64,000 nucleotides of DNA from Patescibacteria group bacterium (GTDB lineage: Bacteria > Patescibacteriota > Patescibacteriia > JBAZBY01). This document shows positions 6,139 through 62,887 of this stretch, in pieces. The stretch's first letter is position 1, and the number at the start of each line of letters is the position of its first letter. The DNA is taken from the NCBI GenBank assembly GCA_041671225.1, contig JBAZBY010000001.1, forward strand, positions 430,940-494,939, given 5' to 3'. Below the pieces are notes generated by a model. It did no database searches and had not been told where the DNA came from. It saw only the letters and a list, made by a program, of their open reading frames with translations. The position numbers and the translations under genes are program-made.

Positions 6139-9100
6139 GTGATATTTTTTGTAAAAATCAAAAAAATGAATTGGGCAGCAATGTTTAGACACCTTAAGGA
6201 GCAGCGCGACGCTTGCCTTGCGCGGGCTCAGGCAGGCGGACTATTTGTTAAGGCAATAGGATATATTGCCTGTTTTGTGTTGGACATTGTGCTTGTGTTC
6301 GCGCTCATTCCTTTTTCAATAACCGCATCGCCAACCGCTAGCTTTCAACGCGTTGCACGCTTTTCACCGGATAAAGGATTCATTGATTCATATGACAAGC
6401 ATTTAAAGTATTACCGCGCATCCGTCGGTACGGCATTACTTGCAGGTGTTGGCGTTTCTTTGCAGATCATTTTTGCGCTCGCAACGTTCGGCATTCTTTC
6501 TTTCAGTAATCCAACGCAGGTTAACGCTGTTGATGGACGGATGCTCGCCTTTTGGGATGCCAGCGGCCCAGTACCAGCTGGATGGAGCTGTCAGTCCTGC
6601 GGTTCAGGAGATTTCTACCAGAAGTTCCCCCGTGGCGCTGCAACATATGGCGGAACAGGCGGCGGTACAACGCATACCCATGCCATGTCATATCTTTCAA
6701 TGTCCGGAACCATCAGCAGCCCTCTTTCATTGATTGGTGGTGCGGTAGTACAAGCATCGAAATTGCACACGCATACCTATATCTACGACCAAACAATGAA
6801 TGCGGGAACGTCATTGCCTCCATATCGGGATATGGAGGTCATCCGATATGACACCACCGGCGCTCCTGCCACTATTCCTGCCGGGGTCATTTTAATGTTT
6901 GATGCTGCACCCTCAGGATCATGGACCAGGTATACCGATCAGGACGGAAGTTTCATTTATGGAGAAAATGACGTCACAGGAACTGGCGGCTCAGAAACCC
7001 ATAATCATACCAATGTTGGGTATACTGTTGATGCATCCGCCGGTAATGCAGGTATTGAACTTGGCGATGGTCTGGGCGCCGGTTCTTTTGATGCACACAC
7101 CCATACCGTATCCGGAGCAACGACAAATACCGTATCTACGTTGCCGCCATATCTTGATGTGTTGCTGTATAAAGCAACAGGAGAAACCGCACTTCCTGAC
7201 GGCGCCATTGCCATGTGGGATGATACGCCAGCGGATGCTGCTTGGACCGTGAACTCTGGAGCAAGCCAGCTATTCAATGAAAAATTCCTTCGCGGCAATT
7301 CCAGCTACACCGGCATTGCTGCAGGCTCCGCAACACACGGACACTCGAATCTTGCCAGTGTGACCAGTGGTCCTTCCGGCGGGGCAAACAATGCGGGTTC
7401 TGGGACAAAGTCGGGGGCGAGTTATTCTCATACACATTCCATTTCAGTCACCATCGGCGCGGCAACGAATTATCTGCCGCCGTACCGCGATGTCATCATT
7501 GCACAGTACTCGACGGACATCACTATCTCCGGCACGATTCGTCAGTCGAACGAAAGTACGGCCTACGACTGTTCGGCGAACAACTTGACAGTCAACGTGA
7601 GCGTCAATGGTGGCGCGAACTCGACCGCAACATGCACGGCAGCTGATGGGTCGTTCTCCGTAAGTGCATCGCAACCATCCTCCGCGGGTGACCCAATCGT
7701 TGTCTCGGTCGATAGTGGTGAGTCGGTGCAAGCGACGACCGTTACGCTCGCGGCAGACACGACGTCCGCCATCACCGATCTCGACCTGTACGAAAATCGA
7801 CTCATCGTCCGCCACGAGGATGCGGGCCCGATAACGAACGCGAAGCTCGCAACAGGGGATAACGGCGACGCGGGAATCCGCTACGGCGTTGCGTCGAGCA
7901 ACCTCACCGTGGATAACAATATTGAACTGCACGTCTGGACCGGTGATACATTCATCCCCGGTGGTATAGTGACGACGCAGGGTTCGGCGGATTTTCATAT
8001 TGACGATAGCGCGACTGCGACACTTGCGACGACGGGCAATACCATCGCGGGAGATGCGGTGGTCGACACCGGAGCAACACTGAACCTTAACGCGAACACA
8101 ACCATCGACGGTGGAGCCATCGCCACTGCCGGCACTGGGACGGTTGCAACGAGCGGGACACCAACCGTCACCTTGCACGGGACGGGAAGCATTGGCGGTG
8201 GGAGCGGGGCAATCGCTTTCTATAACCTCACCATCGGAGACGCATCGGCAGCCGCGACGACGATGGATAGTGACGTCAGCATTGCGAACGTCCTCAACGT
8301 CGACACGAGTGACAGTATGACGATTGCCGCAAGTAAGACCGTGACGCTCGGCGCGAGCGCCACCGTCACGCTGAACGGCTCCATCCTCGGTGACGGCCGC
8401 TTGATCTATGCGAATATCAGTACCACATTCCCAACGAGCGGCATCATCTCCTCCGTGCTGCGTTTCGACAGCAGCAGTGGCAATATCACGATTCCTGCGC
8501 GCACGTACGGCGGCGACGTTGAGCTATATAGCAATTCAGGGACGATCCGCATAGCGCCGATCGGCACTGCGCCCGGGCAGACCATTACAATCGGTGGCGA
8601 CTACATCATCATTGCAGACGGCACCGCAGATATATATTCCAACAATTTGACCTACGCCCCGATAATGTTGATTACCGGCGGCATCGACTTCACGGGTATT
8701 GGGAGCGGCACAGAGCGTATTGAGGGCGGGACGAGCAACTGGACGATTACCGGCGGCATCGACTTCACAGGTGGCAGCTGCGGATGTACCACGTCGGACT
8801 TCACGTTCAATGGGGGCGGGACACTGAACTTCGCATCTAACACGGTCGATGACCTCACCATCACAGGAACATACACCGTCACCTCGGGGAGTCTCGCAGG
8901 AGTGAACGGGACGCTCGATCTCACCGGAAGTACGACAACGCTGACGAACACCACCATCTGGATGAGGGGATCTACTGGCACCATCATCGGCGCGGGCAAT
9001 GCGTTCAGCACGCTGTCCATCGGCAACGGCTCGGACATCATCACCGTTGCTGATTCGGATTTTTCCGTGACGGCGAATTTAAATATATTGTTTGCGACGG

Positions 9101-12100
9101 ATACTCTCTCTATTGGTGCTGGGCGAACCGTGACACTTTCAGGAACGCTGACTATGCCTGGGACCATTTCCGGTGAGGGGCGGCTGACATATCAGAATGC
9201 TGCCGCATTCCCGACCACCGGGACGATATCCTCCATCCTGCGCTTTGACGCGACGAACAACGACCAGACGATGAGCACCCGGGTGTATTCCGGTGCGGTG
9301 GAGATCGTGAACTCCTCGGATGCCGCGGCACGAACCGTGACCATGAGCGCTGGTGACACATACTTCCTGAGCGATCTGACGCTTGCAGCGAACGGAACGC
9401 AGAATGTGACGCTGAATGCTGCGACGAACAGCGCCACTCCATCCGTTGGGGGCAATATTGATTTCAATGGTACAGGAGCAGGGACGGAGATCATTGTGAG
9501 TGGTGCTCAGCAGTGGGTTGTTACAGGCGACGTCGATTTCACCGGAGGGACGTACACTGCGAGTGCTGGGAACACCTTCGCTATGGATGGTATTGGGAAG
9601 GTACTCACTTCAGCTGGCACGACCTTCCAGCATTTCGCGCCATACGGTGACATCACCCTCGCCGATGCGCTGGTGGTTGCCGGGGACGTGACTGCCGCAG
9701 GGAACTTTGACGCCGCGGGCAAAGCGATCACTGTGAGCGGGAGCTGGGATGGTAGCGCCGGTGCATTCACTCCTAATGGTAACATCGTCACATTTGATGC
9801 GACTGCTGCAGGTAAGACCATCATCACCGGTGGCTCGTCGTTCTACGATGTTGATTTCAACAGTGCGAGCGGCGGGTGGACCGTGCAGACCGATGACATG
9901 GTGACGCATGACCTCACACTGACTGACGCAGCGAGTTTCACGCTTGAAAGCGGCCGCACGCTCACCGTGCAAGGCAACTTCACCAACAGCGTCCCGAGCA
10001 CAACAACCTGGACCGGCACCACGTTGTATTTGAACGGCAGCGGTGGGTTGCAGACCATCAACACCAAGGGCAGCGGTGACACGTACGCGACACTGCGGAT
10101 CGGCGCGAGCGAAGACATTGCGATGTGGGATTCCAGCGCCGGGACAGTGACCACTGACGCCGGCGGTTGTCTGCTCTCGCAAGATGATGCAGGGACGGCC
10201 GGACGCCTGAACATCTACGGCACCTGTAACTCACGTGCGAACGAGTATTGGGCGTATGCGACGGATTTTGACGGGACGGCGCTCGGCGGCGCATCGCGGC
10301 AGGCAGACGTGCGCTTTGCAGACGGCGCGAGCTTCACCGTGGATGCAGGGGACACGCTCCAGGTTCTTGGCCAGAGCGCGAGCGCAAACCGCACGGCCAT
10401 TACACGGCAAAGCACTGGCAATTATGGCGTGAGCGTTGACGGAACGCTGTCCGCGCAGTATTACGATTTTGATTATTTGAATGCAAGCGGACTGAACATC
10501 ACATCCACAGCAACCGTGAGCGAACTTTCCGACGGGAGTTATGACAACAATGCTGCCGGCGCTTCGTCCGCCTATATAACGGTTACCGGTAACACATCAG
10601 CCACCACCTTCACCAATATCGTTTTTGATTCTGCTGGCGACGGCGCTGATGCGAACGTCGTCTATAACGTGAACGCTGACGGCAGCGGCATTGACTGGAC
10701 CTTTCTTGCAGCAGCAGGAAATAAGAACGGCGAAAGCTTTGACCGCGAGGTCAATGGCGCCAGCGTTGTGTGGACGGAAATATTCACCGCAGTGAATGAC
10801 GGCCTGACTGGCGATGCTGACTTTTCCAATGACACTGACACCCTTTCTGCCAATTGGGCCATGGATGATGAGACCGGCATCGACCACTACGAATATGCCT
10901 TTGGCACAACCCAAGGCGGAACCGATGTCGTGAACTTTACGAATGCAGGGCTTGCCACGGTTGCAACGGAAAACAACCTTGCGTTGGTGGATGGCACAAC
11001 GTATTACGCGACCATCCGTGCGATCAACGCCGGGGACGACGTGATGGAAGAAGCATCCAGTAATGGCGTGGTGGTGGACACGGCAGCTGCAACATTCTCC
11101 AATATTCAAGATTCCGCAACCACAACAACCATCACCATCACCTGGGACAGCTCAGAAGGGACCACAACCCAGGTTCGTTATGGAATCACGGCCGGGTATG
11201 GCAGTGCAACGATAGCAGACCCCGCTTTGCTCACCGAGCACAGCGCGACCATCAGCGGGCTCAATGAAGACACCACATATCATTACCAGTTGGTCGGCGT
11301 TGACCGCGCAGGCAATGAAACAACATCTGCAGACCGCACCATTGTAACAGATGGCCTTGACCCCACGGTCATCACCAACACGCAATCCACTGTACTTTCA
11401 TCCACATCGGTTCTCATCACGTGGGACACCAACCACCTTGCGGACTCCAAGGTGCGGTATGGGCTCACCACCGCATACGGCCTTGAGGAATACGATGCGA
11501 CGCTCGTTACCAGCCACTCCATGACGCTCACCGGGCTTGAACCCGGAGTGCAGTATCATTACGAAGTGCTTTCCGTGGGCAATACCAGCACGAACGATGC
11601 CGATGCGACATTCATCACCGATGCAGAAGAACCAGAACCAGAGCCTGAACCAGAGGATGAACTGACTCCAGTTGAAAATGTTGAACTCAATGGCGAGGCA
11701 GCACAAACCGGAGATGATTTCAATCTCATCTTTATTCCCAAATCAGGAACTCTTATCTTTATCGGTACCGCAGAGTCGAATGCAACCGTTCGCATTCGTC
11801 TTGATGGATTCTACACGGCCAGCACCACATCAGATGCAGATGGAAATTGGGAGATCATCATCAGCGTAAAAAGCACTCCATTGGAATTTGGCGAACACAT
11901 TGCTGAAGCCCGTGTGCTGAAGAACGGACACAGCACGTCATACGAGCGCATTGCGGAATTCCAGTTGACGTCGGAGCGGTACCTCGCCTCCCCGACTATT
12001 CTTTCACCCGAAGAAGATGAGATTGTTATCTCACTGCGACCCCTTATTACCGGGCTCGCAGAATCAGGCAGCATCATTCATTTCTATATTGATAACGTCT

Positions 12101-12831
12101 TTGTTGGTTCCACAACCACAACGCAGCATGCGTCAGGCACGGGCAGCTTTGCCTTCACGCCGACAGAGGAACTCACTGGCGTCCAGCATACGCTGTATGC
12201 GGTTGCCGTTAGCGGCGACAGCGCCTCCAGAAATTCACCGGATGTGCATTTTACCGTAGAGCTGCCCTTCATCGGCATCACGTTCCTGGATGCATACCTT
12301 GTACAGGCACTGCCGGAACCATATATCGCCTTTGAAGGCATCGGCGCAGGCGGATCGCGCGTCGACTTTTATCTGAACGATGAATTCCTGGATCGCATCG
12401 GCTTGCTCAACGGGCATGATTCCGTGGAGCACTTCACATACAAACTGTATGCCAATAACCTAGTGCCAAAGGATTACACATTATATGCGATCGCATACGA
12501 TGATAGTGGCAAGTCTTCACGAAAATCGAACGTGGTGAGTTTCACCAAGTCCAGTGATGTTGCCGCGTCGATATTAGTGACCAGTCTGGGTAGCGCACCA
12601 GTCCCCGCAACGCCTTCTCCGCAGCCGATATCCCTGCCAACGGTCATTGGAACCGGCCCGGGTGGAACATATACCGTACAGCGCGGAGACAGCTTATGGA
12701 GCATTGCAGAGGCACAGCTTGGCGACGGCTCTCGCTACGACGAAATAATCGCATTGAACCAAGATGCGCATCCGGAGCTGCTCATGGATTCGGGGAGTAT
12801 TTACAGCGGCTGGGTTCTGCGGCTGCCCTAG
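6139..12831 (+). CDS. giant (2230 aa) cell-surface protein: N-terminal TM anchor, phage-tail-collar-like repeats, repeated beta-helix-like modules, FN3 and Ig-like domains, C-terminal LysM
   Basis: Single ORF. Collar-like segments PAGWSCQSCGSGDFYQKFPRGAATYGGTGG and HTH...LPPYRDV repeats. FN3-like TWDSSEGTTTQVRYG and ITWDTNHLADSKVRYG. EPEPEPEPE linker. C-terminal LysM GTYTVQRGDSLWSIAEAQLGDGSRYDEIIALN. Track start 6139 is GTG; alternative ATG at 6166. Confidence 0.85.
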   Translation: MIFFVKIKKMNWAAMFRHLKEQRDACLARAQAGGLFVKAIGYIACFVLDIVLVFALIPFSITASPTASFQRVARFSPDKGFIDSYDKHLKYYRASVGTALLAGVGVSLQIIFALATFGILSFSNPTQVNAVDGRMLAFWDASGPVPAGWSCQSCGSGDFYQKFPRGAATYGGTGGGTTHTHAMSYLSMSGTISSPLSLIGGAVVQASKLHTHTYIYDQTMNAGTSLPPYRDMEVIRYDTTGAPATIPAGVILMFDAAPSGSWTRYTDQDGSFIYGENDVTGTGGSETHNHTNVGYTVDASAGNAGIELGDGLGAGSFDAHTHTVSGATTNTVSTLPPYLDVLLYKATGETALPDGAIAMWDDTPADAAWTVNSGASQLFNEKFLRGNSSYTGIAAGSATHGHSNLASVTSGPSGGANNAGSGTKSGASYSHTHSISVTIGAATNYLPPYRDVIIAQYSTDITISGTIRQSNESTAYDCSANNLTVNVSVNGGANSTATCTAADGSFSVSASQPSSAGDPIVVSVDSGESVQATTVTLAADTTSAITDLDLYENRLIVRHEDAGPITNAKLATGDNGDAGIRYGVASSNLTVDNNIELHVWTGDTFIPGGIVTTQGSADFHIDDSATATLATTGNTIAGDAVVDTGATLNLNANTTIDGGAIATAGTGTVATSGTPTVTLHGTGSIGGGSGAIAFYNLTIGDASAAATTMDSDVSIANVLNVDTSDSMTIAASKTVTLGASATVTLNGSILGDGRLIYANISTTFPTSGIISSVLRFDSSSGNITIPARTYGGDVELYSNSGTIRIAPIGTAPGQTITIGGDYIIIADGTADIYSNNLTYAPIMLITGGIDFTGIGSGTERIEGGTSNWTITGGIDFTGGSCGCTTSDFTFNGGGTLNFASNTVDDLTITGTYTVTSGSLAGVNGTLDLTGSTTTLTNTTIWMRGSTGTIIGAGNAFSTLSIGNGSDIITVADSDFSVTANLNILFATDTLSIGAGRTVTLSGTLTMPGTISGEGRLTYQNAAAFPTTGTISSILRFDATNNDQTMSTRVYSGAVEIVNSSDAAARTVTMSAGDTYFLSDLTLAANGTQNVTLNAATNSATPSVGGNIDFNGTGAGTEIIVSGAQQWVVTGDVDFTGGTYTASAGNTFAMDGIGKVLTSAGTTFQHFAPYGDITLADALVVAGDVTAAGNFDAAGKAITVSGSWDGSAGAFTPNGNIVTFDATAAGKTIITGGSSFYDVDFNSASGGWTVQTDDMVTHDLTLTDAASFTLESGRTLTVQGNFTNSVPSTTTWTGTTLYLNGSGGLQTINTKGSGDTYATLRIGASEDIAMWDSSAGTVTTDAGGCLLSQDDAGTAGRLNIYGTCNSRANEYWAYATDFDGTALGGASRQADVRFADGASFTVDAGDTLQVLGQSASANRTAITRQSTGNYGVSVDGTLSAQYYDFDYLNASGLNITSTATVSELSDGSYDNNAAGASSAYITVTGNTSATTFTNIVFDSAGDGADANVVYNVNADGSGIDWTFLAAAGNKNGESFDREVNGASVVWTEIFTAVNDGLTGDADFSNDTDTLSANWAMDDETGIDHYEYAFGTTQGGTDVVNFTNAGLATVATENNLALVDGTTYYATIRAINAGDDVMEEASSNGVVVDTAAATFSNIQDSATTTTITITWDSSEGTTTQVRYGITAGYGSATIADPALLTEHSATISGLNEDTTYHYQLVGVDRAGNETTSADRTIVTDGLDPTVITNTQSTVLSSTSVLITWDTNHLADSKVRYGLTTAYGLEEYDATLVTSHSMTLTGLEPGVQYHYEVLSVGNTSTNDADATFITDAEEPEPEPEPEDELTPVENVELNGEAAQTGDDFNLIFIPKSGTLIFIGTAESNATVRIRLDGFYTASTTSDADGNWEIIISVKSTPLEFGEHIAEARVLKNGHSTSYERIAEFQLTSERYLASPTILSPEEDEIVISLRPLITGLAESGSIIHFYIDNVFVGSTTTTQHASGTGSFAFTPTEELTGVQHTLYAVAVSGDSASRNSPDVHFTVELPFIGITFLDAYLVQALPEPYIAFEGIGAGGSRVDFYLNDEFLDRIGLLNGHDSVEHFTYKLYANNLVPKDYTLYAIAYDDSGKSSRKSNVVSFTKSSDVAASILVTSLGSAPVPATPSPQPISLPTVIGTGPGGTYTVQRGDSLWSIAEAQLGDGSRYDEIIALNQDAHPELLMDSGSIYSGWVLRLP

Positions 12832-17775: not shown

Positions 17776-18360
17776 ATGCCACTTATTCCAATGGTTGTCG
17801 AAAAGTCATCGTTTGGGGAACGGGCGTACGATATTTATTCGCGTCTTTTAAAGGAGCGCATCATCTTTCTCGGCGAGCCTATTGATGATACGGTTGCCAA
17901 TATCGTGATCGCGCAGATGCTCTTTTTGGAGAGCGAAGATAAGAGCAAGGATATCAAGCTCTATATCAACTCGCCGGGCGGTTCCGTGACTGCCGGCATG
18001 GCCATTTATGACACCATGCAGTATGTGAAGTCTCCGGTGATGACCATCTGCATTGGCATGGCGGCAAGCATGGCAGCCGTGCTTCTTTCTGCCGGCGCCA
18101 AAGGCAAGCGACTTGGGCTGCCGAATTCTGAAATGCTCTTGCATCAGATCATGGGCGGTGCAGAAGGCCAGGCAGCGGATATCAAGATCCAGGCGGAGCA
18201 CATCCTCCGCATCCGCGAACGGCTGGATAAGATCCTCGCCAAACACACCGGGCAGCCCTTGCCAAAAATTCAGAAGGATACGGATCGTGATTTTTGGATG
18301 ACCGCCGAGGAAGCCAAGAAATACGGTGTCATTGATAAAATCGTTGATAAAGCGCCGTAA
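17776..18360 (+). CDS. clpP: ATP-dependent Clp protease proteolytic subunit
   Basis: 194 aa. [17 protein letters not shown], catalytic Ser in [14 protein letters not shown]. Confidence 0.93.
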
Positions 18361-18429: not shown

Positions 18430-19548
18430 ATGAATAAAGGATTTGCTATCTTACCGGTGGTGTTTATTGTCGTTGCCGTCCTTCTTGGCGGCGTGGTTGG
18501 GTATGCAGTGTATTCTTTGCCTGGTCTCACGCAGAATGATGCAGCAGCACCAGCGCAGGTGATTGCCAATGGCAATACGAATACCGGCCTGCTCGGCGGA
18601 GATAGTGATGAACATGGGTGCATAGGGTCTGCGGGGTATTCGTGGTGCGAGGCAAAACAAAAGTGCTTACGTATTTGGGAAGAAGATTGCACAACTACGA
18701 CGAACACCAATACTACTACTGACCCAATCGCAGACTGGGAGACGTATATGAATACCGCCTTTGATTATTCTCTTCAGTACCCTACGAGCTGGGAAGCGCC
18801 TTCTGCCGATGCGGAGATTGCTGAATTTGGCGTAGGGGTAAGACAGCCTTTTTGGATCAAAAAAGTAGATACAATAAGCGAAACATTGGTTGTCCCTGGG
18901 AGCAACATGAAGATTATTATTGATGGAAATGAGGCAACTCAGCAGAAAGAGGGTGGAGAAAGCACATATGTAGTGACATATTTTTCACAAATGACTGGCT
19001 ATCTTCAAGTTGGTTATGATGAATCTCTCAGTGAAGGCAACGACGTTCTCTTGTCAATTGATTTTGATTCCACTGCCGACTGGGCGACATATACAAATAG
19101 CGATATGGGGTACCGTGTCCGTTACCCGGCCAATTGGACAATAACTGAAACCAATAAAACTTCAGAGATAACCACAGGTCAAACGGTTCAGTACGTCACG
19201 ATAGCAAACGCAACTGATACATACTCTCTCCATCTTGGAGTGAAAAGCACCAGCCAATCAAATATTGATATCTGGTATCGCACAGGAATCGGCGCGGGCG
19301 ATTTTGAAGCCGGTGAGTCGGTGGCGATGGCAGGTACAAGTATCCAAACGACAAAATTGGTCTATCAAGGAAAGACTGTTGAAGTGTTTTTCAATCCAGC
19401 GGATGCCTCACCCAGCCAGGTCGTTATCGGAACGCATGCCGTATCGGCTTACTTGCACAATAATTCAGAAAACAGCGCCGATATTTTAGGATCAGACGAA
19501 TATTCGGTTGCCAAAGACATTGTGGGTACATTGGAATTTACGGACTAA
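18430..19548 (+). CDS. paralog 1 of 4: N-terminal TM anchor (MNKGFAILPVVFIVVAVLLGG), 4-Cys module, two PsbP-like DWxTY-N...YP..W repeats
   Basis: 372 aa. HGCIGSAGYSWCEAKQKCLRIWEEDC; repeats DWETYMNTAFDYSLQYPTSWE and ADWATYTNSDMGYRVRYPANW. Confidence 0.7.
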   Translation: MNKGFAILPVVFIVVAVLLGGVVGYAVYSLPGLTQNDAAAPAQVIANGNTNTGLLGGDSDEHGCIGSAGYSWCEAKQKCLRIWEEDCTTTTNTNTTTDPIADWETYMNTAFDYSLQYPTSWEAPSADAEIAEFGVGVRQPFWIKKVDTISETLVVPGSNMKIIIDGNEATQQKEGGESTYVVTYFSQMTGYLQVGYDESLSEGNDVLLSIDFDSTADWATYTNSDMGYRVRYPANWTITETNKTSEITTGQTVQYVTIANATDTYSLHLGVKSTSQSNIDIWYRTGIGAGDFEAGESVAMAGTSIQTTKLVYQGKTVEVFFNPADASPSQVVIGTHAVSAYLHNNSENSADILGSDEYSVAKDIVGTLEFTD

Positions 19549-19558
19549 TACAAACACC

Positions 19559-20713
19559 ATGCTCCAACGCGGCATCGCTCTTCTTCCCATCCTTCTCATC
19601 ATCGGCGGCGTTGTATTGGCCGGCATTCTTGGATTTGTGATATGGCAACTGCCGAGCATGACCAACACCCAAACAACGAATACAGCAAATATCGTGGTCA
19701 ACACGAATGCTGTTGCTTGCACACAGGAAGCGAAGCTCTGCCCGGACGGTTCTGCTGTTGGCCGCACTGGGCCAAACTGCGAGTTCGCTGCATGCCCGGG
19801 GGAGACGAATACGAATATTTCTACCGCAGACTGGAAGACATATGCGAATAATGAATTTGATTTTACATTTCAGTATCCAAATTCCTGGATCGTCGAAAAT
19901 TGGAAAGATATTGGACAATTTGTCAATGGAGATGGAAGAACTTTTTCATTTATCTGGGATGAAATTATCATCCGCGAAGGAGATGTGCGGGAAAACACTA
20001 CTGGTAGCAGTGCGCTTAGTTTTGGGTTCACTGATATTTCGGCGGAGTTATTTATTGGACGGTATAATAGTGATGGTGATACCGCATCTCAGGTGATAGC
20101 GCCTGTATATATTGAAACCGTTGCGGGAAGAACTGTGAAGCATGTGACTGCAGAAACTGCAATTGGATTGCCACGTGAGTACCTGTTTTTTGCTCCGTAT
20201 TCCTCCGGTTTTATTATTTCTTACGATGATTTTGACAGTACACATAAACAAATTCTCTCTTCATTGACGTTTACGGAACAGGATCCAACCGCATGGTGGG
20301 GTACATATACAAATGAGCAATATGGATTTACATTGCGTTATCCATCTATGTTTAGTGTGTTTGAAGAATCAACCCTATTGAAAGGTGAGCAGGAATATCC
20401 ATCTATTGTCTTTGCACCAAGCAATGACCTTGGGGTTTTCTCAATAACAATATATCCGCGAAAAAGTAATGAAACCGGACTTGCTGCATATTTGAGCGCT
20501 GTGCCGACCGATCTTCATGCGTCAGAACAGACAAGTGTGTCTGTTGGCGGCGCTGAGGGTATTAGGATTGATCCTGTTCCAGGATTGGCACCAGCAAAGG
20601 CAGTTTTTCTTGCCAAGGACAATTTCGCGTTTGAGTTAAATACAAGCAGTAGACCTGGACTTACTGATGAGGAATATAATAGCATCCTCTCTACCTTCCA
20701 ATTCACAAATTAG
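19559..20713 (+). CDS. paralog 2 of 4: pilin-like N-terminus MLQRGIALLPILLIIGGVVLAGILGF, 4-Cys module VACTQEAKLCPDGSAVGRTGPNCEFAACPGE, PsbP-like repeats
   Basis: Track ORF 19508 trimmed to the Met after the stop of paralog 1. Repeats ADWKTYANNEFDFTFQYPNSW and AWWGTYTNEQYGFTLRYPSMF. Confidence 0.7.
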   Translation: MLQRGIALLPILLIIGGVVLAGILGFVIWQLPSMTNTQTTNTANIVVNTNAVACTQEAKLCPDGSAVGRTGPNCEFAACPGETNTNISTADWKTYANNEFDFTFQYPNSWIVENWKDIGQFVNGDGRTFSFIWDEIIIREGDVRENTTGSSALSFGFTDISAELFIGRYNSDGDTASQVIAPVYIETVAGRTVKHVTAETAIGLPREYLFFAPYSSGFIISYDDFDSTHKQILSSLTFTEQDPTAWWGTYTNEQYGFTLRYPSMFSVFEESTLLKGEQEYPSIVFAPSNDLGVFSITIYPRKSNETGLAAYLSAVPTDLHASEQTSVSVGGAEGIRIDPVPGLAPAKAVFLAKDNFAFELNTSSRPGLTDEEYNSILSTFQFTN

Positions 20714-20716
20714 GGT

Positions 20717-22054
20717 ATGACCCAACGCGGATTCGCTTTTCTTCCCATCCTTCTCATCATCGGCGGCGTTGTATTGGTCGGCATTCTTGGATTTGTGATA
20801 TGGCAACTGCCGAGCATGACCAACACCGGAAACACGAACACGGTGAATGTTGTGGTCAATGCGAATACTGTCGCCTGCACGGAAGAAGCAAAGCTCTGCC
20901 CGGACGGTTCTGCTGTTGGCCGCACCGGGCCAAACTGCGAGTTCGCTGCATGCCCGGGGGAGAATACCAATACCTCTGTTGATCTGACGGCCGATTGGGA
21001 AACATATACGAATGATACTTATGGGTATTCGATTCGATATCCAAAAGGGTGGGTATATGATGCTATGTTTCTTGAATCCGTGGTTTTTAATTCCGAATCT
21101 ACTGGTCAATGGAGGCTTTCAATCGATATGGAACCAACCGCGAGATCTGTGCAGGAAAATATTGATACTCCGATCCACAATAGCCTAGGAGAAGCCACGC
21201 ATCTTCAAGGAGATGAATGGGAAAGAAGCGCTCGCACCATCGATGGGCAACAAGCAATACGAATAGTTGTCCGTGAACTCCATCCTGGTGACTATGGGGA
21301 TACAAAAACACTGGTCGTCAATGACGGCTTCCTTTATACCTTAAGCCAAGGAACAGGTTCAGATCCTATTGAATCGGCCATGGTCGATAGTTTGAGATTT
21401 ACATCCCGCAAGACAATCGCAGATTGGAAGACATATACGAATGACGAATTCGGTTTTTCATTCAAATATCCTGCTGATTATCAACTTGAAACAGGCTCCG
21501 GCGATGTTCAACTCATTGCTCGCTCGTTCCACCCGCAAGGGCTCTTAGCCTTTGGAGTGTGGCGCGGAGAACAAGAGGACTGTGAGTGCGAGCTCATTAC
21601 GTATAATGGAAAAACCATCACCGTAGGTGATTCCCAATATAATGATTCATGGGAAACGGATTATATGTGGTCCACCTTCCAATTCACGGACGTCACGACC
21701 ACTCAAGCAACAGATGATGACTCTGTATCATTAAGTCCGGAGGATCAGCAAGCGCTGGAATCAGTCGCGTTTGCAGTGGTAGATCAAAAAACCAGTGGGC
21801 AATGGGATAAGAGAATAGATGTTGGGCGCGTAGATGCATCGCAAAATGCGGTTGTAGGGTACTGGTGGGCGCGCGACCGCTGGCAATGGATCGCTTGGAG
21901 ACAAGCAGGAGGCGATTGGAATATTCTGGTAAGTCTGGACGGATTTGATTGTACAGAATTAGAAAGTCTCCCAACGCAATATGAGAGTTTTTTCCATAAC
22001 GTCATATATATATCGTCTGGCGAAAAGTATTGCTTTTCACACACATCTCGCTAA
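20717..22054 (+). CDS. paralog 3 of 4: N-terminus MTQRGFAFLPILLIIGGVVLVGILGF, same 4-Cys module, PsbP-like repeats, 445 aa
   Basis: 5' ~110 nt and the Cys-module coding stretch are nearly identical at nucleotide level to paralog 2. Confidence 0.7.
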   Translation: MTQRGFAFLPILLIIGGVVLVGILGFVIWQLPSMTNTGNTNTVNVVVNANTVACTEEAKLCPDGSAVGRTGPNCEFAACPGENTNTSVDLTADWETYTNDTYGYSIRYPKGWVYDAMFLESVVFNSESTGQWRLSIDMEPTARSVQENIDTPIHNSLGEATHLQGDEWERSARTIDGQQAIRIVVRELHPGDYGDTKTLVVNDGFLYTLSQGTGSDPIESAMVDSLRFTSRKTIADWKTYTNDEFGFSFKYPADYQLETGSGDVQLIARSFHPQGLLAFGVWRGEQEDCECELITYNGKTITVGDSQYNDSWETDYMWSTFQFTDVTTTQATDDDSVSLSPEDQQALESVAFAVVDQKTSGQWDKRIDVGRVDASQNAVVGYWWARDRWQWIAWRQAGGDWNILVSLDGFDCTELESLPTQYESFFHNVIYISSGEKYCFSHTSR

Positions 22055-22090
22055 AGAAATAACAGGCACGTCGGAATTCACAATGAACAT

Positions 22091-22711
22091 ATGACCCAAC
22101 GCGGATTCGCTTTTCTTCCCATCCTTCTCGTCATCGTCGCGTTGATTCTCGCAGGAGTACTGAGTTTTGGTTTGTATTTGCTTTCTGGTGCTGGCAATGA
22201 TAATGGTATCAACACGAACATTGGCACTACTACCGTGGTAAAAAATTTTGATGAATGTGCAGCCGCGGGGTATCCGGTTGGCGAAAGCTACCCGCGCCAG
22301 TGCTTTGCAAATAGGCAGACGTTTGTGGAGGATATTGCTAACACGAATAACAACGCCACCACAGGACCTGCTGTGTGTGGTGATGGCGTGTGCGCCGTGG
22401 GTGAGGCAGAATGTATTCCGAGCGAGTGCGGTGAGGGTTGGTGTACAGATGATTGTAGCGTGCCACTCTGTCCGGAAGATTGTACGAATGAGGTAAGATT
22501 TTCCTTGCCATTAGAAACAGCAGAAGAGGTGCAGGCCTTTCTGGAGACGAAAAATAATCCTGTCGATTGTTTAAATACTCAATTTTCAGCTGATTGGAAT
22601 GAAGCGGGGTATTGGGATGTCACATGTCATAGTAACGAAATGAGTATGTCTGTTGCGGTTGAGCCAGATGGTGACTATCATGACGCGCCTCGATTTCTAG
22701 GGACAAATTAG
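22091..22711 (+). CDS. paralog 4 of 4 (206 aa): same N-terminus MTQRGFAFLPILLVIVALILAG, Cys-rich (12 Cys) extracellular domain
   Basis: First 40 nt identical to paralog 3. CGDGVCAVGEAECIPSECGEGWCTDDCSVPLCPEDC. Confidence 0.65.
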   Translation: MTQRGFAFLPILLVIVALILAGVLSFGLYLLSGAGNDNGINTNIGTTTVVKNFDECAAAGYPVGESYPRQCFANRQTFVEDIANTNNNATTGPAVCGDGVCAVGEAECIPSECGEGWCTDDCSVPLCPEDCTNEVRFSLPLETAEEVQAFLETKNNPVDCLNTQFSADWNEAGYWDVTCHSNEMSMSVAVEPDGDYHDAPRFLGTN

Positions 22712-22809: not shown

Positions 22810-24339
22810 ATGGAATTCAGCATATTATGGTTCGCGATTCTCGCGGCCTCGCTTGCTGGTGGCGTGCTTGCAGGGTATTGGTTCCGCAAAACCTGGGCCA
22901 TTCGAGAAGCACAATCCATCGAAGCAAAAGCGCAAACACTCATAGAAAAGGCAAAGGCAGAGTCAAAGGAACATCTGCTCGATGCAAAAGAAAAGGCCAG
23001 TAAAGTAATTGAAGAAGCGCAACGCGAAGAAAAAGAACTTCGGGCGGAGCTTCGCAATCAACAGCAACGACTTGAACAACGCGAGTCGAAGTTTGATTCC
23101 AAGCTAATGGAGGTGGAAGGTAAGCAAGAAGAGCTTGCCAAAAAGGCCACAAAGCTTGAAGAACTCAAAGGGAAAATCCGTGAGATTCAGGAAATGCAGG
23201 AAAAGCGGTTAGAGGAAATCGCAAGTTTATCTCGGGAGGAAGCAACAGAAAAGCTCATGATCAAGGTGGAGGAGAGCAGCAAAGAAGCGCTGACATCCCG
23301 CCTTAAAAAGATGGATCAGGAGAGTTCTGATGTGATCGATAAGAAGGCCCGCGATCTTCTTTCCACCGCCATTCAGCGCGTGGTGCATAGCCACGTGACA
23401 GAAACGACCACCACCGTCGTGCAGCTTCCAAGTGAAGACATGAAGGGTCGCATCATCGGGCGCGAGGGCCGCAACATCAAAGCGCTTGAAACGCTCACCG
23501 GTGTTGAAATTGTTGTTGATGACACGCCGGATACCATCGTGATTTCTGGCTTCAATCCGATTCGTCGGCACTTAGCAAAGCGCGCATTAGAGAAACTGAT
23601 GTCTGATGGTCGCATTCACCCTGCCCGCATTGAAGAGACGGTAAAGGAAGCAAAGAAGGATCTCACGCGCGATATTCAAAAAGCCGGTGAAGATGCCGTG
23701 TATGATGTTGGCGTGACGGGGCTCAACCCGCAGCTCGTGCAGGTGCTCGGTCGTTTGAAGTACCGCACAAGTTACGGTCAGAATGTTCTCTTGCACTCCA
23801 TTGAAGTGGCATTACTCTCTGGGCTTATTGCCGCACAACTCGGCGCAGACAGCGCAAAAGCAAAGAAGGCCGGCTTGCTGCATGACATCGGTAAAGCAAT
23901 CAACCATGAAGTCGGCGGTGCGCATACGACCGTCGGATATGAAATTTTAAAGAAGTTCGGCGTGTCGGAAGATATTGCACAAGTCGCCGTGGGTCACCAC
24001 GAAGATCATGTTGAGGATCTTACCACTATTATCGTGAAGACAGCGGACGCCATCAGCGGTGGCCGCCCAGGCGCACGTAAGGATACCTATGAGAACTACG
24101 TGCAACGCTTGGATGAGATCGAAACACTTGCCAAGAACTTTGAGGGCGTAGAAAAGGTCTATGCAATTCAGGCTGGCCGCGAGGTTCGCGTGTTTGTGGA
24201 ACCAACCAAGATTGATGATTGGAAGGCGCATGAACTGGCAAAGGACATTGCCAAGAGCATTGAGCAGCAGCTGCAATACCCCGGTGAAATCAAGGTGAAT
24301 GTGATCCGTGAGACGCGGGCAATAGAATATGCCCGCTAA
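22810..24339 (+). CDS. rny: ribonuclease Y (N-terminal TM, KH and HD domains)
   Basis: 509 aa. N-terminal anchor FAILAASLAGGVLAGYWF, charged coiled coil, KH region GREGRNIKALE, HD motif GLLHDIGKA. Confidence 0.92.
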   Translation: MEFSILWFAILAASLAGGVLAGYWFRKTWAIREAQSIEAKAQTLIEKAKAESKEHLLDAKEKASKVIEEAQREEKELRAELRNQQQRLEQRESKFDSKLMEVEGKQEELAKKATKLEELKGKIREIQEMQEKRLEEIASLSREEATEKLMIKVEESSKEALTSRLKKMDQESSDVIDKKARDLLSTAIQRVVHSHVTETTTTVVQLPSEDMKGRIIGREGRNIKALETLTGVEIVVDDTPDTIVISGFNPIRRHLAKRALEKLMSDGRIHPARIEETVKEAKKDLTRDIQKAGEDAVYDVGVTGLNPQLVQVLGRLKYRTSYGQNVLLHSIEVALLSGLIAAQLGADSAKAKKAGLLHDIGKAINHEVGGAHTTVGYEILKKFGVSEDIAQVAVGHHEDHVEDLTTIIVKTADAISGGRPGARKDTYENYVQRLDEIETLAKNFEGVEKVYAIQAGREVRVFVEPTKIDDWKAHELAKDIAKSIEQQLQYPGEIKVNVIRETRAIEYAR

Positions 24340-28533: not shown

Positions 28534-29580
28534 TTACCGAAGTATCGTGGGATCAGAGACGTGCGCCTGTGCCGTAGCTTCGTCAATTTGATCCTGTTCG
28601 TAGAGTTGCTTTACTGCCTGATCCATGGTGACCATACCGTGATCCTTGCTTGTTTGGATTGCGGTCTTGATCTGTGCGATCTTGTTTTCGCGGATAAGGT
28701 TGGCAACTGCTGGCGTGTTGAGCAATACTTCTCGTGATGCAACGCGGCCGCCGGTCTTTCTTGGCAGTAATTGTTGTGAGATGACCGCGCGTAAGAACAA
28801 TGAGAGCTGCAAACGCACCTGTGGCTGTTGGTATGGAGGGAATACATCGATAATACGGTCGATCGTTTGTGCGGCATTCAGCGTGTGCAGGGTGGCCATC
28901 ACAAGGTGGCCTGTTTCAGCAAGGGTAATAGTGGAAGCGATGGTTTCAAGATCCCGCATTTCTCCAACAAGGATAACGTTTGGATCCTGACGCAGCACGT
29001 GCTTCAAGCCCTGCGCAAAGGAGAGGATGTCCGTGCCGTACTGCCGTTGTTTGATGATGCTTTTTTTTGGTTCGTAGACGAATTCAATAGGATCCTCAAG
29101 TGTAATGATATGGCGCGCGCGTTCTCGATTGATAATATCAATCATTGCGGCAAGCGAGGTGGACTTTCCCGAGCCGGTCGGTCCGGTGACGAGAATCAAT
29201 CCCTGGTTGAGTTTCACAAGATCATAAACGATCGGCGGCATGCCGATTTCTTCCATAGAAGGAATTTTTTGTCCAATGACGCGCGCAACGAGCCCTGCGT
29301 GTTCTTTTTCCCAGTGAAGGTTCACGCGGAAGCGCGAGAGATTCTTTATCTCATAAGAAACGTCGAGTTCACGGTCTTCAATATAGCTCGCTTTTTGTTG
29401 TTCGTTCAGGATGGAGTAGCAGAGTTTTTCTACGTCCGTAGCAGTGAGTACAGGCTGGCCGTCGATGGGCCTGAGTTCTCCGTCAATACGAAGAATAGGT
29501 TGCAGATTTGTAACCAAGTGAAGGTCTGATGCGCCTTTTTCAACGGCGATGCGAAACAGTTCGTCCATTGTTGTTCCCAT
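28534..29580 (-). CDS. pilT: type IV pilus retraction ATPase PilT
   Basis: 348 aa. Walker A GPTGSGKST, Asp box, Walker B and His-box typical of PilT/PilU (shorter than PilB, no N-terminal extension). Confidence 0.88.
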   Translation of the reverse strand: MGTTMDELFRIAVEKGASDLHLVTNLQPILRIDGELRPIDGQPVLTATDVEKLCYSILNEQQKASYIEDRELDVSYEIKNLSRFRVNLHWEKEHAGLVARVIGQKIPSMEEIGMPPIVYDLVKLNQGLILVTGPTGSGKSTSLAAMIDIINRERARHIITLEDPIEFVYEPKKSIIKQRQYGTDILSFAQGLKHVLRQDPNVILVGEMRDLETIASTITLAETGHLVMATLHTLNAAQTIDRIIDVFPPYQQPQVRLQLSLFLRAVISQQLLPRKTGGRVASREVLLNTPAVANLIRENKIAQIKTAIQTSKDHGMVTMDQAVKQLYEQDQIDEATAQAHVSDPTILR

Positions 29581-37199: not shown

Positions 37200-39542
37200 T
37201 TAATTGGAGATGCGTTGCGGAAAGTATTCACTCCCAAGGGGCTCTAGATTTCCACTGCCATTTGGGTTAAAACCATTCGATATTTCAATATAATCATCAA
37301 ACCCATCACCGTCAGTGTCTGTATTGTTTTTGTCGGTGCCATATTGGTATTCAATCGCGTCATGAAGTTTGTCGCCATCCGCATCAAAAATATCAACGGT
37401 TTCCTCAACGCCACCAGCACTTGCACCTCCCTCAAGCGAGAGAAAGCGATCCGTCGCCGTATTCAATCCTGCGATAAATCCAAAATTCCCAACGATAACG
37501 GTGCCGGTTTCTCCTTGGAGCTGATAGAGAAGTTTATAGTGCGTTCCTTCGGCCGTTGGGCTATAGTTGAAGTTTTCTCCGGTGACAATATCTATTAATG
37601 AAGGTGGTGCTTCGTTCCAAGCATCTGCCGTTGCAAGAAGATCATTTAGTGTCTCTGGGTAGATACCATTATCGACATAATAGTATTTGAGAAGATTGTG
37701 AAGCGTTGAAATATTTCCCGTTTGACGCTGATTCTCAATCGGCTGAAGTTCTTCTTCGGTTGGTAAGCTCAAAACAGTAGGTGTTCCGCTAAACTGGAAA
37801 GCTGTTGCGATATTTGTTTGATTTGGCAAGAGACTTCCTATGTCATAACGATATGGCATGAGAAGACTAATCGGGTTTTGTAAATTTTCTACGGAGGGTG
37901 GGCCTTGGAAATCGAGAAGATACCCATTCAAATTATCTGTGTCGAGATGATACGTAAAAGGCTTCTTGGTATATTGATCCAAAGGAATTTCTTCAAGATA
38001 CTTTGGGGTCAGTTGTTCAAGTGATGTAGGGTACGTATATTCGTTATCATATGAATAGTCCCGAAGAGCATTGCGAACCCGATTTACGCTTCCGAGTTGG
38101 TGGTAGGCTACCATATCGGCATCGGTGAGACCGAATGTCTCTTGTGCAATGGTGTCTATGTCAACAGCGTTTGTAGGATTCTGAATGATAATGGGTTGAT
38201 TGACATCGGTGAGTGTAAGAGAAAAACGCATCACTAATTGTTTATCAGGAAGTATATTCGCACTCGTTGGGATAAGCCTCAGCCAGATTTCTGTTTTTAC
38301 CGGCATGTCAGTTTGGGCATCAATCCAGACATCAACGTAGCTGTTTTGTTGAAGGGAATCTAAAAATAACAAGAATGCAGGATCATCATAGATTGCAAAC
38401 ACATCATCACTGCCGATGAATGGAATTTCAATTGATTGATTTTTTTCAGAAAGTATTTGTAGTGCAGCAGTGAGAGCCGGGCGAATATTTTTAGGATTGG
38501 TTCCGACACGAAGATGGCGCGTGTTGACGTTGTTGATCATTTCCTTCCCAAGATCCTTTCGTATCGTGAACAGTCCTTGCGTGACGAGCGCTGATGAGAT
38601 TTCTTGTGCGGTTTCAATCGTCGTGTTTTCTTTTGACGATGGTGGGGTTGCGTCCGGCGTTGTGTTGATTGTCCCAAGACCGAGTATTTCTCCAAGCGCA
38701 GAATCTTTTTCAAGATGTATCCACGTATTCAGGAGCGGAGTGAGATCTGTATTATTTCCCACAAGATCATTGGCGAGAGAGGGTAATGTGGAAATGAGCG
38801 CATAGAGATTATTCTCAATAAGACGCATTTGCATTGCGAATCCTTCATCTATTTCATTGAAAACGAATTGACCCTCCATACCGAATTCTGTATCGCCAAG
38901 ACCGTTGTTCGCAATGTCTTTTTTAAAAATACCGTTCATCGATAGCGTCATATCCATATTATTTGGTACAAATCCAAATAAGGAATCCAAACCACTGGAA
39001 GGCAAGGATGTTGCGATATTTTCGATACCAACATTTGCGGCGCTACTGTCGATTGAGAAGGCACTTTGTGCATGAGCGATATTCGGCTGTAGCCATGAGC
39101 TGGCGTTCGACATGTTCGTATTCTTTGTTGAGATGTTTTGCATCGCCTCGTCATAACTTTCCCAATCGATCGGTATGGCATCCGCATCGCGTGGTTGTAC
39201 GCTCACGTCTAGATCAATATGATATTTGGCAGATTCAATTGAAAAGAGTTGTTCAATTGTCTTTGAAAATACCGCCGTGGCACGATTGTTAAAGAATTGT
39301 GTTGGTGTCGGTATCCATCCCTGATACATGCCAAAGGCCGTGCCGCCAAAAAACAGAATCGCAAGGGCAGTAATGATTCCCCATATAAATCTTTTGCGAC
39401 CGCGTTTTTGTGGTGCTTGAAATCCGTCGCCTTGTTTTTGTGGTGCTTGCGGACGCTCAGGCGTCAGACTTGGTTGTGCTGGAGAAAAAATATCTTGAAT
39501 GTCAGCCATGCATGCAGTATAAACAGGTTTTTGAGTACACAC
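37200..39542 (-). CDS. large (780 aa) membrane-anchored extracellular protein with C-terminal thrombospondin-type-3-like Ca-binding repeats
   Basis: N-terminal TM (FIWGIITALAILFFGGTAF). C-terminal DADGDKLHDAIEYQYGTDKNNTDTDGDGFDDYIEISNGFNPNG. Confidence 0.6.
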   Translation of the reverse strand: MCTQKPVYTACMADIQDIFSPAQPSLTPERPQAPQKQGDGFQAPQKRGRKRFIWGIITALAILFFGGTAFGMYQGWIPTPTQFFNNRATAVFSKTIEQLFSIESAKYHIDLDVSVQPRDADAIPIDWESYDEAMQNISTKNTNMSNASSWLQPNIAHAQSAFSIDSSAANVGIENIATSLPSSGLDSLFGFVPNNMDMTLSMNGIFKKDIANNGLGDTEFGMEGQFVFNEIDEGFAMQMRLIENNLYALISTLPSLANDLVGNNTDLTPLLNTWIHLEKDSALGEILGLGTINTTPDATPPSSKENTTIETAQEISSALVTQGLFTIRKDLGKEMINNVNTRHLRVGTNPKNIRPALTAALQILSEKNQSIEIPFIGSDDVFAIYDDPAFLLFLDSLQQNSYVDVWIDAQTDMPVKTEIWLRLIPTSANILPDKQLVMRFSLTLTDVNQPIIIQNPTNAVDIDTIAQETFGLTDADMVAYHQLGSVNRVRNALRDYSYDNEYTYPTSLEQLTPKYLEEIPLDQYTKKPFTYHLDTDNLNGYLLDFQGPPSVENLQNPISLLMPYRYDIGSLLPNQTNIATAFQFSGTPTVLSLPTEEELQPIENQRQTGNISTLHNLLKYYYVDNGIYPETLNDLLATADAWNEAPPSLIDIVTGENFNYSPTAEGTHYKLLYQLQGETGTVIVGNFGFIAGLNTATDRFLSLEGGASAGGVEETVDIFDADGDKLHDAIEYQYGTDKNNTDTDGDGFDDYIEISNGFNPNGSGNLEPLGSEYFPQRISN

Positions 39543-43003: not shown

Positions 43004-43549
43004 GTGAAAGGTCGAAAGAATAATCCCCCTAACACATACCCTTACATGAAAAAAGGTCTCCTCACTCTTACGCTTGCAGTTTCCAGTATCCTCATTGGCG
43101 GCGTGATCGCTGTCGCAACCACAAGCGCATTTGCGCAAAACAGCGATACTGCGGTACCTGCAGCTGAGACGAGTACCGCAACAACAGCGCAGGACACAAT
43201 GCCGCTGTTAAGCGCAGAAGAACGTGATGCCATTCACACGCAAGTACAAGAGCGTACTGCGGAAAAGCTTGGTGTTACGGTAGATGCAATGGATACAGCG
43301 CGAACAGAAGCGCGAACAGAAGTCTTTGCCGAACATGGCATTGATCTCGCAGCGCATCAGGCAGAACGCCTTGAGCGCATGACAGCGCATCTACAGGAAA
43401 TGGTGGATGAAGGTCGCATCACGCAAGAAGAAATGGATGCGCGCATTCAGCAGATCGAAGATGGCGAAGGTTTTGGTCCAGGTATGGGCCAAGGCATGCA
43501 CGATGGTCTCGGACATGGACATCGCGGCATGGGTTCCATGGACCTCTAA
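43004..43549 (+). CDS. secreted His/Gly/Met-rich protein (signal peptide; likely start at the Met at 43046)
   Basis: MKKGLLTLTLAVSSILIGGVIAVATTSAFA signal peptide. C-terminal GFGPGMGQGMHDGLGHGHRGMG suggests metal binding. Confidence 0.55.
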   Translation: MKGRKNNPPNTYPYMKKGLLTLTLAVSSILIGGVIAVATTSAFAQNSDTAVPAAETSTATTAQDTMPLLSAEERDAIHTQVQERTAEKLGVTVDAMDTARTEARTEVFAEHGIDLAAHQAERLERMTAHLQEMVDEGRITQEEMDARIQQIEDGEGFGPGMGQGMHDGLGHGHRGMGSMDL

Positions 43550-62797: not shown

Positions 62798-62887
62798 GGT
62801 GGGAAAACCGCCATTTCTTTTTTCTGGGATTTCAGTATACTTACTATAGATTATTAACGTTTCATAGTGAAAAAGGGGGATTTCTTT

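Follow-up and report, generated by a model that had tools for sequence, protein, structure and literature searches.

The surface proteins of Patescibacteria, bacteria that live attached to other microbes, are the likely points of contact, and most of them are annotated as 'hypothetical'. The subject here is a tandem array of four genes (P1 to P4) in a Patescibacteria group bacterium, within a stretch of 64,000 nucleotides (contig JBAZBY010000001.1, positions 430,940 to 494,939 of the forward strand) that is referred to as the window. At their N-termini the encoded proteins resemble type IV pilins, and in the ectodomains of P1 to P3 they resemble PsbP. PsbP-type folds are typically protein- or ligand-binding scaffolds; in CyanoP, DcrB and Apa an N-terminal anchor or signal places the domain outside the cytoplasmic membrane, which is also the predicted arrangement of the array proteins. 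Type IV pilins carry a class III signal, in which a hydrophilic leader ending in Gly is followed by about 21 hydrophobic residues interrupted by Glu5 and is cleaved by a dedicated peptidase (PMC4471445, Berry and Pelicic). The quoted length of the leader is 6–26 residues, and the α1 helix of the pilin, about 50 residues long, carries a globular head (PMC4471445). Mutagenesis, as summarized in the same review, identified Gly-1 as the critical determinant of processing, for which Glu5 is always dispensable; Glu5 is required for homopolymer assembly (PMC4471445).

Among the closest described systems are some in which a large domain follows a pilin-like N-terminus. In the 'bindosome' of Sulfolobus, a large non-pilin ectodomain follows a pilin-like leader for which Glu5 is not required (PMC3047682, PMC4471445), and this is the layout of the array proteins as well. 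The bindosome, however, occurs in archaea, where a dedicated Bas system assembles it and the cleavage of its proteins by PibD has been shown experimentally, whereas the array is known from its sequence and has no assembly genes linked to it. PilB and PilC of Streptococcus sanguinis and PilX1 and PilX2 of the Saccharibacterium TM7x likewise bear large functional domains on an N-terminal hydrophobic helix in a monoderm-like cell, and PilX1 and PilX2 share with the array the lack of a predicted PilD signal (PMC11623550). All four retain the 'lollipop' module of pilins, and their genes are in pilus loci, whereas neither applies to the array proteins.

On balance, P1 to P4 appear to be envelope proteins held by uncleaved signal anchors, which diversified by duplication and 5′ gene conversion. 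The organism is an ultrasmall bacterium of the candidate phyla radiation (CPR, or Patescibacteria), and the proteins probably belong to an ordinary, though poorly understood, family of surface proteins.

N-termini, relatives and pilus genes

The N-termini read MNKGFAILPVVF (P1), MLQRGIALLPILL (P2) and MTQRGFAFLPILL (P3 and P4). Each has a leader of 4–5 residues, which contains a basic residue and ends in Gly at position −1 (MNKG/F, MLQRG/I and, twice, MTQRG/F), followed by a hydrophobic stretch of 24–26 residues, in which the best 17-residue window has a mean Kyte-Doolittle value of 2.9–3.1. Pro stands exactly at +5 after the Gly in all four. Thus, the pilin-like N-termini with Pro at +5 that had been described in a first-pass annotation of the window are real in every paralog. 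After the hydrophobic helix, each paralog continues with a disordered Thr/Asn linker and then with folded ectodomains; the same annotation had recorded a short Thr/Asn-rich linker, and in the models of P3 and P4 a low-confidence linker does follow the helix. In P1–P4, the hydrophobic segment does not end in a lipobox ([LVI][ASTG][GA]C), and no Cys precedes residue 54.

The likeness to the class III signal (models TIGR02532 and N_methyl) consists of a short leader with [KR]-G at its end, a +1 residue that is aromatic or aliphatic, and some 21 or more hydrophobic residues: Gly-1, Phe or Ile at +1 and a hydrophobic tract of at least 21 residues are present in all four paralogs. The differences are Pro in place of Glu at +5, a leader of 4–5 rather than 6–26 residues, and the lack of a match to the hidden Markov models (HMMs). 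Neither Glu nor Asp is found at +5 in any of the four, nor in 72 similar relatives without the pilin consensus. Full-length P1–P4 gave no match to the Pfam and NCBIfam prepilin models (TIGR02532, N_methyl) at E ≤ 1, and their isolated N-termini gave no match to TIGR02532 even at E ≤ 10, whereas three genuine Patescibacterial pilin N-termini from related loci scored 35.4, 20.4 and 16.8 bits against a cut-off of 16.3. When Pro10 of P3 was replaced with Glu in silico (P10E), TIGR02532 again gave no match and the only hits, of 14 bits, were to GspH and PilV; thus, the N-terminus of P3 is not one residue away from a pilin signal.

The position of the Pro has not been conserved among relatives. In the N-termini of the 72 relatives that have a Gly junction and lack Glu5, the first Pro is at +3 in 21, at +4 in 7 and at +5 in 16, and is absent in 25, the commonest form of the anchor being KGFAP(I/L). 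Since the Pro floats or is missing, it does not stand in for Glu5 at a fixed position; its behaviour is that of a helix N-cap. As judged from these sequences, 'RGF-A-x-L-P' belongs to a common type of Patescibacterial anchor, [KR]-G-[FIL]-A-(x0-2)-P, as one of its variants, and is not a pilin signal in which Pro has taken the place of Glu5. The lollipop fold of pilins is also absent from the models of P3 and P4: the helix ends at residue 30 and 32, respectively, and is followed by a disordered linker and unrelated domains, where a pilin would have α1C and a β-sheet head.

The same ectodomains occur behind several kinds of tether. At E ≤ 1e-3, a search of 1.84 billion representatives with the ectodomain of P3 alone (residues 85–330, without anchor or Cys module) found 2,128 representative clusters. 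For the typing of anchors, the 147 best relatives were selected by ectodomain alone, and 143 of them have an N-terminal hydrophobic segment: 96 have a plain transmembrane (TM) anchor, 9 a lipobox, 25 a Gly junction without Pro and 13 a Gly junction with Pro, the remaining 4 being without a hydrophobic N-terminus. As these types are mixed behind the same ectodomains, the type of anchor is interchangeable and, going by the sequences, the ectodomains evidently work whatever the membrane tether. The first-pass annotation had offered, as one possibility, a new family of membrane-tethered extracellular binding proteins. The tethering is supported by the helix, linker and ectodomains of the paralogs and by the hydrophobic N-termini of their relatives; the novelty does not stand, as the family is widespread and already covered by Pfam PF18933; and binding is a function that the fold suggests.

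There is a pilus-type gene in the window, but it stands alone. A PilT-type ATPase (T2SSE, E = 4e-43) is encoded at 28534–29580 on the minus strand, about 6 kb from the array, and this orphan pilT is flanked by genes for a PAP2-like membrane protein and an RNHCP protein, in agreement with the earlier remark that pilT at 28534 lacks flanking pilin genes. No pilB, pilC, pilM, pilD or pilin gene was found in the window or in about 8 kb beyond its 5′ (low-coordinate) end, and a walk outward from one protein at a window edge passed through 10 kb of housekeeping genes. The pilin motif G-[FILMV]-[TSA]-L-x-E is absent from all six frames of the window, as are Bas-like assembly genes from the window. 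Linkage was also checked in 79 related loci, by BLAST with PilT and by classes of motif. Array-type anchors occur in 18 of these loci, often encoded by two or three genes in tandem (L008, L029, L056) in housekeeping surroundings, and in none of the 18 is there a pilus operon around them, the sole adjacency (L050) being a convergent ATPase gene. In the same data set, canonical GFTLIE pilins adjoin PilB/T ATPases in two of four loci.

Pilin-head-like modules that are detached from a pilin N-terminus seem to occur in the lineage. A TM-anchored protein of 780 residues, encoded in the window at 37200–39542 on the minus strand, has two internal stretches like the head motif of pseudopilins and GspG (..L..Y..D.G.YP..L..L) and no class III leader; it gave a weak Pfam match to T2SSG at residues 607–637. 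In locus L056, the protein encoded at 2275–3264 has a KGF-type anchor and a PsbP-like domain, followed at the C-terminus by the same GspG-like motif.

Ectodomains, cysteine modules and origin of the array

Six W-x-T-Y-x-N...YP repeat starts were found, two each in P1, P2 and P3. The Pfam family PsbP_2 (PF18933), for which the gathering cut-off is 27 bits, matches P3 with 39.3 bits (E = 8.7e-10) and P2 with 27.5 bits, and scores just below the cut-off in P1 (26.2 bits), with two matched stretches in each protein; the Pfam scan gave no match to it in P4. The repeat starts and these scores bear out the pair of PsbP/Mog1-like repeats that had been proposed for paralogs 1–3. The AlphaFold model of P3 was built on 36 homologues and has a mean predicted local distance difference test (pLDDT) score of 71. 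It consists of a helix, a low-confidence linker (residues 31–57), a Cys mini-module (M2, see below), two β-rich domains and a C-terminal α/β domain (Table 1).

When the P3 model was compared with the Protein Data Bank (PDB) using Foldseek, the best 12 matches were PsbP and CyanoP structures (E from 1e-6 to 1e-5), and the 22 matches at E ≤ 1e-3 were nearly all PsbP/CyanoP, with template modelling scores of 0.5–0.6 (normalized to target length). The best 12 were followed by BT_1490, Apa of M. tuberculosis, Tsi3 and, weakly, DcrB, which are envelope proteins with the same fold. The likeness to the PsbP/Mog1 fold (PF18933) thus comprises HMM scores above the cut-off for P3 and P2 and a predicted fold of P3, an α-β-α sandwich, that matches crystal structures of PsbP. 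The array proteins differ from known proteins with this fold in having two tandem domains each in P1–P3, and in being tethered not by a lipobox but by a TM helix followed by a Thr/Asn stalk and a Cys mini-module. Unlike for PsbP, there is no photosystem context at the array, and the identity to solved PsbP proteins is 12–20%.

P4 has a different ectodomain. Its model, built on 34 homologues, has a helix at residues 8–32, a confidently predicted mini-module (M3, pLDDT 93–96), a Cys-rich stretch without confidence and a small domain of α-helix and three β-strands. The 12 Cys reported earlier for this paralog were all counted in its sequence, and CGDGVC...CP.DC stretches related to the Cys-rich region are present in homologues.

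Each paralog has one membrane-proximal Cys mini-module of about 30 residues, of which there are three kinds: M1 (in P1), M2 (in P2 and P3) and M3 (in P4). The consensus is DxHGC..AGYxWC for M1, CTxEAKxCPDGSxVGRTGPNCEFAxCP for M2 and FxECAAAGxPVxESYPRQC..FVE for M3. The first-pass annotation had placed one module, VACT(Q/E)EAKLCPDGSAVGRTGPNCEFAACPGE, in all four paralogs, which is correct for P2 and P3 and not for P1 and P4, as these have other Cys modules. The module VACT(Q/E)EAKLCPDGSAVGRTGPNCEFAACP (VACT..CPDG..CEF..CP) is confined to P2 and P3, at residues 54–80 in both, and M3 of P4 reads FDECAAAGYPVGESYPRQC...FVE at residues 53–80.

Family scans, and PDB sequence searches with all three modules, found no relative of M1, M2 or M3 in Pfam, NCBIfam or the PDB. 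The M2 pattern AKxCPDG[ST][ASY]V gave at least 592 confirmed matches in genome collections, in many Patescibacterial lineages, a few DPANN archaea and others. The spread of M2 exceeds that of the P3 ectodomain family, and the domains to which M2 is joined are numerous and unrelated to one another; among them are substrate-binding proteins, IPT/TIG, Gmad2, CarboxypepD_reg and META. The M1 type recurs in the proteins P0167 and P0182 and in DPANN proteins of loci L067 and L080. Combinations of modules vary in order, with M2 plus M1 in the archaeal proteins of L067 and L080, and M1 plus M3 in P0167 and P0182. Between distant Patescibacteria and DPANN archaea, M1–M3 are 70–90% identical. M2 and M3 proteins carry their modules behind lipoboxes, Sec signals or plain anchors; in most homologues of M3 the module is behind a lipobox or a plain TM anchor, and the DPANN homologues of the modules carry lipoboxes. 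M1–M3, shared with DPANN archaea and absent from Pfam, NCBIfam and the PDB, are a more promising lead than the resemblance to pilins.

The archaeal module-bearing proteins are encoded at 10034–10828 in L067 and at 9980–10816 in L080. The names of the organisms in which homologues were found are unreliable: many TPA_asm records of metagenome-assembled genomes (L002, L005, L018, L023, L024 and others) have typical Patescibacterial genes and are titled 'uncultured Gammaproteobacteria bacterium' or 'Candidatus Saccharibacteria', and P0028 belongs to Pacearchaeota by its NCBI name, with its contig titled Saccharibacteria.

The array bears the marks of its origin at the 5′ ends of its genes. P2 and P3 share 89% identity over their first 247 nucleotides, and P3 and P4 share 96% over their first 50 (22090–22139), whereas the ectodomains of the array are only about 25–39% identical at the protein level. 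With 5′ nucleotide identities of 89–96% and remainders that have diverged to a protein identity of only about 30%, the shared N-terminus is due to homology and not to coincidence. A uniform 5′ cassette in front of diverged ectodomains is characteristic of tandem duplication accompanied by gene conversion, or recent exchange, of the cassette.

The four open reading frames (ORFs) are co-directional and lie between clpP (17776–18360) and rny (22810–24339), with gaps of 10 (P1–P2), 3 (P2–P3) and 36 (P3–P4) nucleotides, in a run of housekeeping genes: infB, rbfA, a DHH phosphoesterase gene, clpP, the array, rny and HU. Independent gene calls agree with the four-paralog array downstream of clpP that had been seen in the list of ORFs, and public gene calls give the same four products, labelled 'hypothetical protein' by NCBI (WCV86_02390/02395/02400) in a metagenome-assembled genome, on a contig of 1.03 Mb. 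The length of P2 is counted from an ATG; there is a longer TTG start at 19508, but the independent gene calls also give 384 residues. Scans for promoters and terminators gave counts no better than those for shuffled sequence, and the claim of an operon is therefore limited to co-directionality and gaps of 3–98 nucleotides.

Table 1. Positions of the features of the P1–P4 array in the window
Feature	Position	Strand	Basis and content
Paralog 1 (P1), 372 aa	18430..19548	+	ORF and independent gene call; anchor MNKGFAILP, Cys mini-module M1, two PsbP-like domains
P1 leader (MNKG) and hydrophobic helix, aa 1–29; Gly4, Pro9 (+5)	18430..18516	+	Sequence, hydropathy
P1 mini-module M1 (GGDSDEHGCIGSAGYSWCEAKQKCLRIWEEDC, 4 Cys, aa 56–87)	18595..18690	+	Sequence
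Paralog 2 (P2), 384 aa	19559..20713	+	ORF and gene call; anchor MLQRGIALLP, module M2, two PsbP-like domains
5′ cassette (leader, TM, linker, M2)	19559..19805	+	DNA alignment; 89% nucleotide identity to 20717–20963; direct-repeat families D1, D4
P2 mini-module M2 (CTQEAKLCPDGSAVGRTGPNCEFAACP, aa 54–80)	19718..19798	+	Sequence
Paralog 3 (P3), 445 aa	20717..22054	+	ORF and gene call; anchor MTQRGFAFLP, M2, two PsbP-like domains, extra C-terminal α/β domain
P3 leader (MTQRG) and hydrophobic helix, aa 1–30	20717..20806	+	Sequence, AlphaFold model; model helix 8–30, Pro10 in first turn
P3 mini-module M2 (CTEEAKLCPDGSAVGRTGPNCEFAACP, aa 54–80)	20876..20956	+	Sequence; model pLDDT 74–82 here
P3 PsbP-like domain 1 (aa 95–226)	20999..21394	+	Model, Foldseek; profile against PDB finds CyanoP 2xb3, E 0.0025
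P3 PsbP-like domain 2 (aa 238–320), shorter than domain 1	21428..21676	+	Pfam, model; profile finds sll1418/CyanoP 2lnj, E 0.028
P3 C-terminal extra domain (aa 341–432)	21737..22012	+	Model, low to moderate confidence; no family match
Paralog 4 (P4), 206 aa, 12 Cys	22091..22711	+	ORF; anchor as P3, M3, CGDG-type Cys-rich stretch, small α plus three-β domain
P4 mini-module M3 (FDECAAAGYPVGESYPRQCFANRQTFVE)	22247..22330	+	11 columns invariant in 34 homologues; model pLDDT 93–96
P4 Cys-rich stretch CGDGVCAVGEAECIPSECGEGWCTDDCSVPLCPEDC (10 Cys)	22376..22483	+	Sequence; model confidence <50

Membrane attachment and the question of cleavage

In the reading favoured here, the N-terminus of each protein would act as an uncleaved signal anchor of the Sec/signal recognition particle pathway, with the N-terminus inside and the C-terminus outside. 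The Lys or Arg of the leader would stay in the cytoplasm, the Pro would cap the first turn of the membrane helix, and the flexible Thr/Asn stalk would display the ectodomains outside the membrane, where the Cys modules probably form disulfide bonds and the domains of PsbP type may serve as protein- or ligand-binding scaffolds. Disulfide-forming families of the MdbA/VKOR type are enriched in CPR (PMC6744442). Tandem duplication would have built the array, and gene conversion would have kept the 5′ leader and anchor cassette near-identical while the ectodomains diverged. The array can thus be seen as an example of the build of a surface protein (conserved anchor cassette, flexible stalk, one of three Cys modules, swappable ectodomains) and of a route by which such proteins may diversify, with the 5′ end made uniform by gene conversion and the ectodomains free to change.

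The anchor is taken to be uncleaved because the hydrophobic stretch has the length of a TM segment and no small-x-small site is nearby, unlike in the AxA signals of the window. Other secreted proteins in the window have normal AxA Sec signals (e.g. ...PQTAHA/AN at 60644 and ...TSAFA/QN at 43046), which indicates that the organism has ordinary secretion. Signal peptidase I could nevertheless cut the array proteins after the hydrophobic segment, releasing soluble or wall-associated exoproteins, since a basic residue followed by a hydrophobic segment is also the generic layout of a Sec signal, and P1 has an A-P-A/Q site at residues 41–44. This is improbable: the hydrophobic segments have about 24–26 residues, which is the length of a TM helix, compared with 7–15 for the core of a signal peptide; they are followed by Thr/Asn linkers; the nearest A-x-A-like site, by inspection, is more than 12 residues downstream in P1 and more than 20 in P3; and the genuine Sec signals at 60644 and 43046 look different. 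That the proteins are true (minor) type IV pilins, which polymerize into a pilus or cap it, is scarcely credible. The leader has a superficial likeness to KG/FTLIE and pilT is 6 kb away, but the Glu5 needed for homopolymer assembly (PMC4471445) is missing, the P3 model has no pilin fold, no pilin HMM matches, the GFTLIE consensus is retained in genuine pilins from related genomes, and the array lies among the housekeeping genes infB, rbfA, clpP and rny. True type IV pilin identity is thus contradicted by the tests of both fold and motif.

An alternative that is somewhat more probable, though still unlikely, is a class III signal without Glu5. Here PilD would remove MNKG, MLQRG or MTQRG after the Gly, and the mature protein would be held in the membrane or passed to a type IV filament machine, as are the sugar-binding proteins of the Sulfolobus bindosome, or would be a tip-located subunit that needs no Glu5. 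In addition to the Gly-1, the Phe+1 (Ile in P2) and the hydrophobic tract of all four paralogs, several observations are in keeping with this: Gly-1 is critical and Glu5 dispensable for processing (PMC4471445); Glu5 is often missing from archaeal class III signals, which are found on binding proteins that are not pilins (PMC4471445, PMC3047682); CPR bacteria widely possess PilD and type IV pili (PMC6744442), and there is a pilT in the window; the large, pilus-associated PilX1 and PilX2 of TM7x have non-canonical signals with no predicted PilD site (PMC11623550); and leaders of 3–8 residues ending in [KR]-G recur in relatives. On the other side stand the control pilins, which TIGR02532 recognizes while it does not recognize the paralogs; the ectodomain family, in which the position of the Pro and even the Gly are unconserved and most relatives have plain anchors or lipoboxes; the P3 and P4 models, with no pilin head or long α1 helix; the lack of linkage to pilus or Bas-like assembly genes, at the array and in the 18 other loci; and the DPANN homologues, which use lipoboxes and not class III signals. 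The proposal in the first-pass annotation that the paralogs are non-canonical prepilin-peptidase substrates thus runs against the absent Glu or Asp at +5, the model searches with their controls, the missing lollipop, the missing linkage, the floating Pro, and the plain TM and lipobox anchors behind the same ectodomains. We regard cleavage as rather unlikely and keep it in view because it is on Gly-1 and the hydrophobic tract that processing is known to depend (PMC4471445).

The most far-reaching form of this proposal would be that [KR]-G-[FI]-A-(x0-2)-P is a Glu5-less class III signal from which PilD removes a leader of 4–8 residues, after which the helix hands non-pilin ectodomains to the type IV pilus platform for display on the surface or at the tip. 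This is unlikely; if true, bacteria would have their own equivalent of the archaeal bindosome, and the episymbiotic ones would be using the pilus machinery for a second purpose that does not involve pilins. More generally, if the anchor were a prepilin-peptidase site, the range of bacterial PilD substrates would widen considerably, which the evidence makes unlikely. A literature search found no paper that connects such Patescibacterial proteins with class III signals.

There are also points that weigh against an uncleaved anchor and the reading built on it. All four N-termini have the minimal features of a prepilin-peptidase substrate (short, basic, hydrophilic leader, Gly-1, Phe or Ile at +1 and about 21 or more hydrophobic residues), and as Glu5 is dispensable (PMC4471445), the absence of cleavage is assumed. 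[KR]-G-F-A recurs across distant Patescibacteria, which hints at selection for more than hydrophobicity. The confidence of the P3 model is moderate (pLDDT 71), and a literature search found no paper naming the PF18933 family.

Other surface and secreted proteins of the window

A second tandem pair of secreted paralogs is encoded at 60644–61717 and 61724–62797 on the plus strand. Each protein has 357 residues; the two are 86% identical overall and nearly 100% identical over residues 30–187. Both have ordinary cleavable Sec signals and no Pfam match, and a third signal-peptide protein is encoded by the next gene, at 62867–63937.

Giant TM-anchored surface proteins are typical of episymbiotic CPR genomes. 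Two predicted surface proteins in the window, both with an N-terminal TM anchor and both encoded on the plus strand, are very long: one of 2,230 residues (6139–12831), with fn3-like domains and a C-terminal LysM, and one of 2,889 residues (51853–60522), with right-handed β-helix/NosD repeats.

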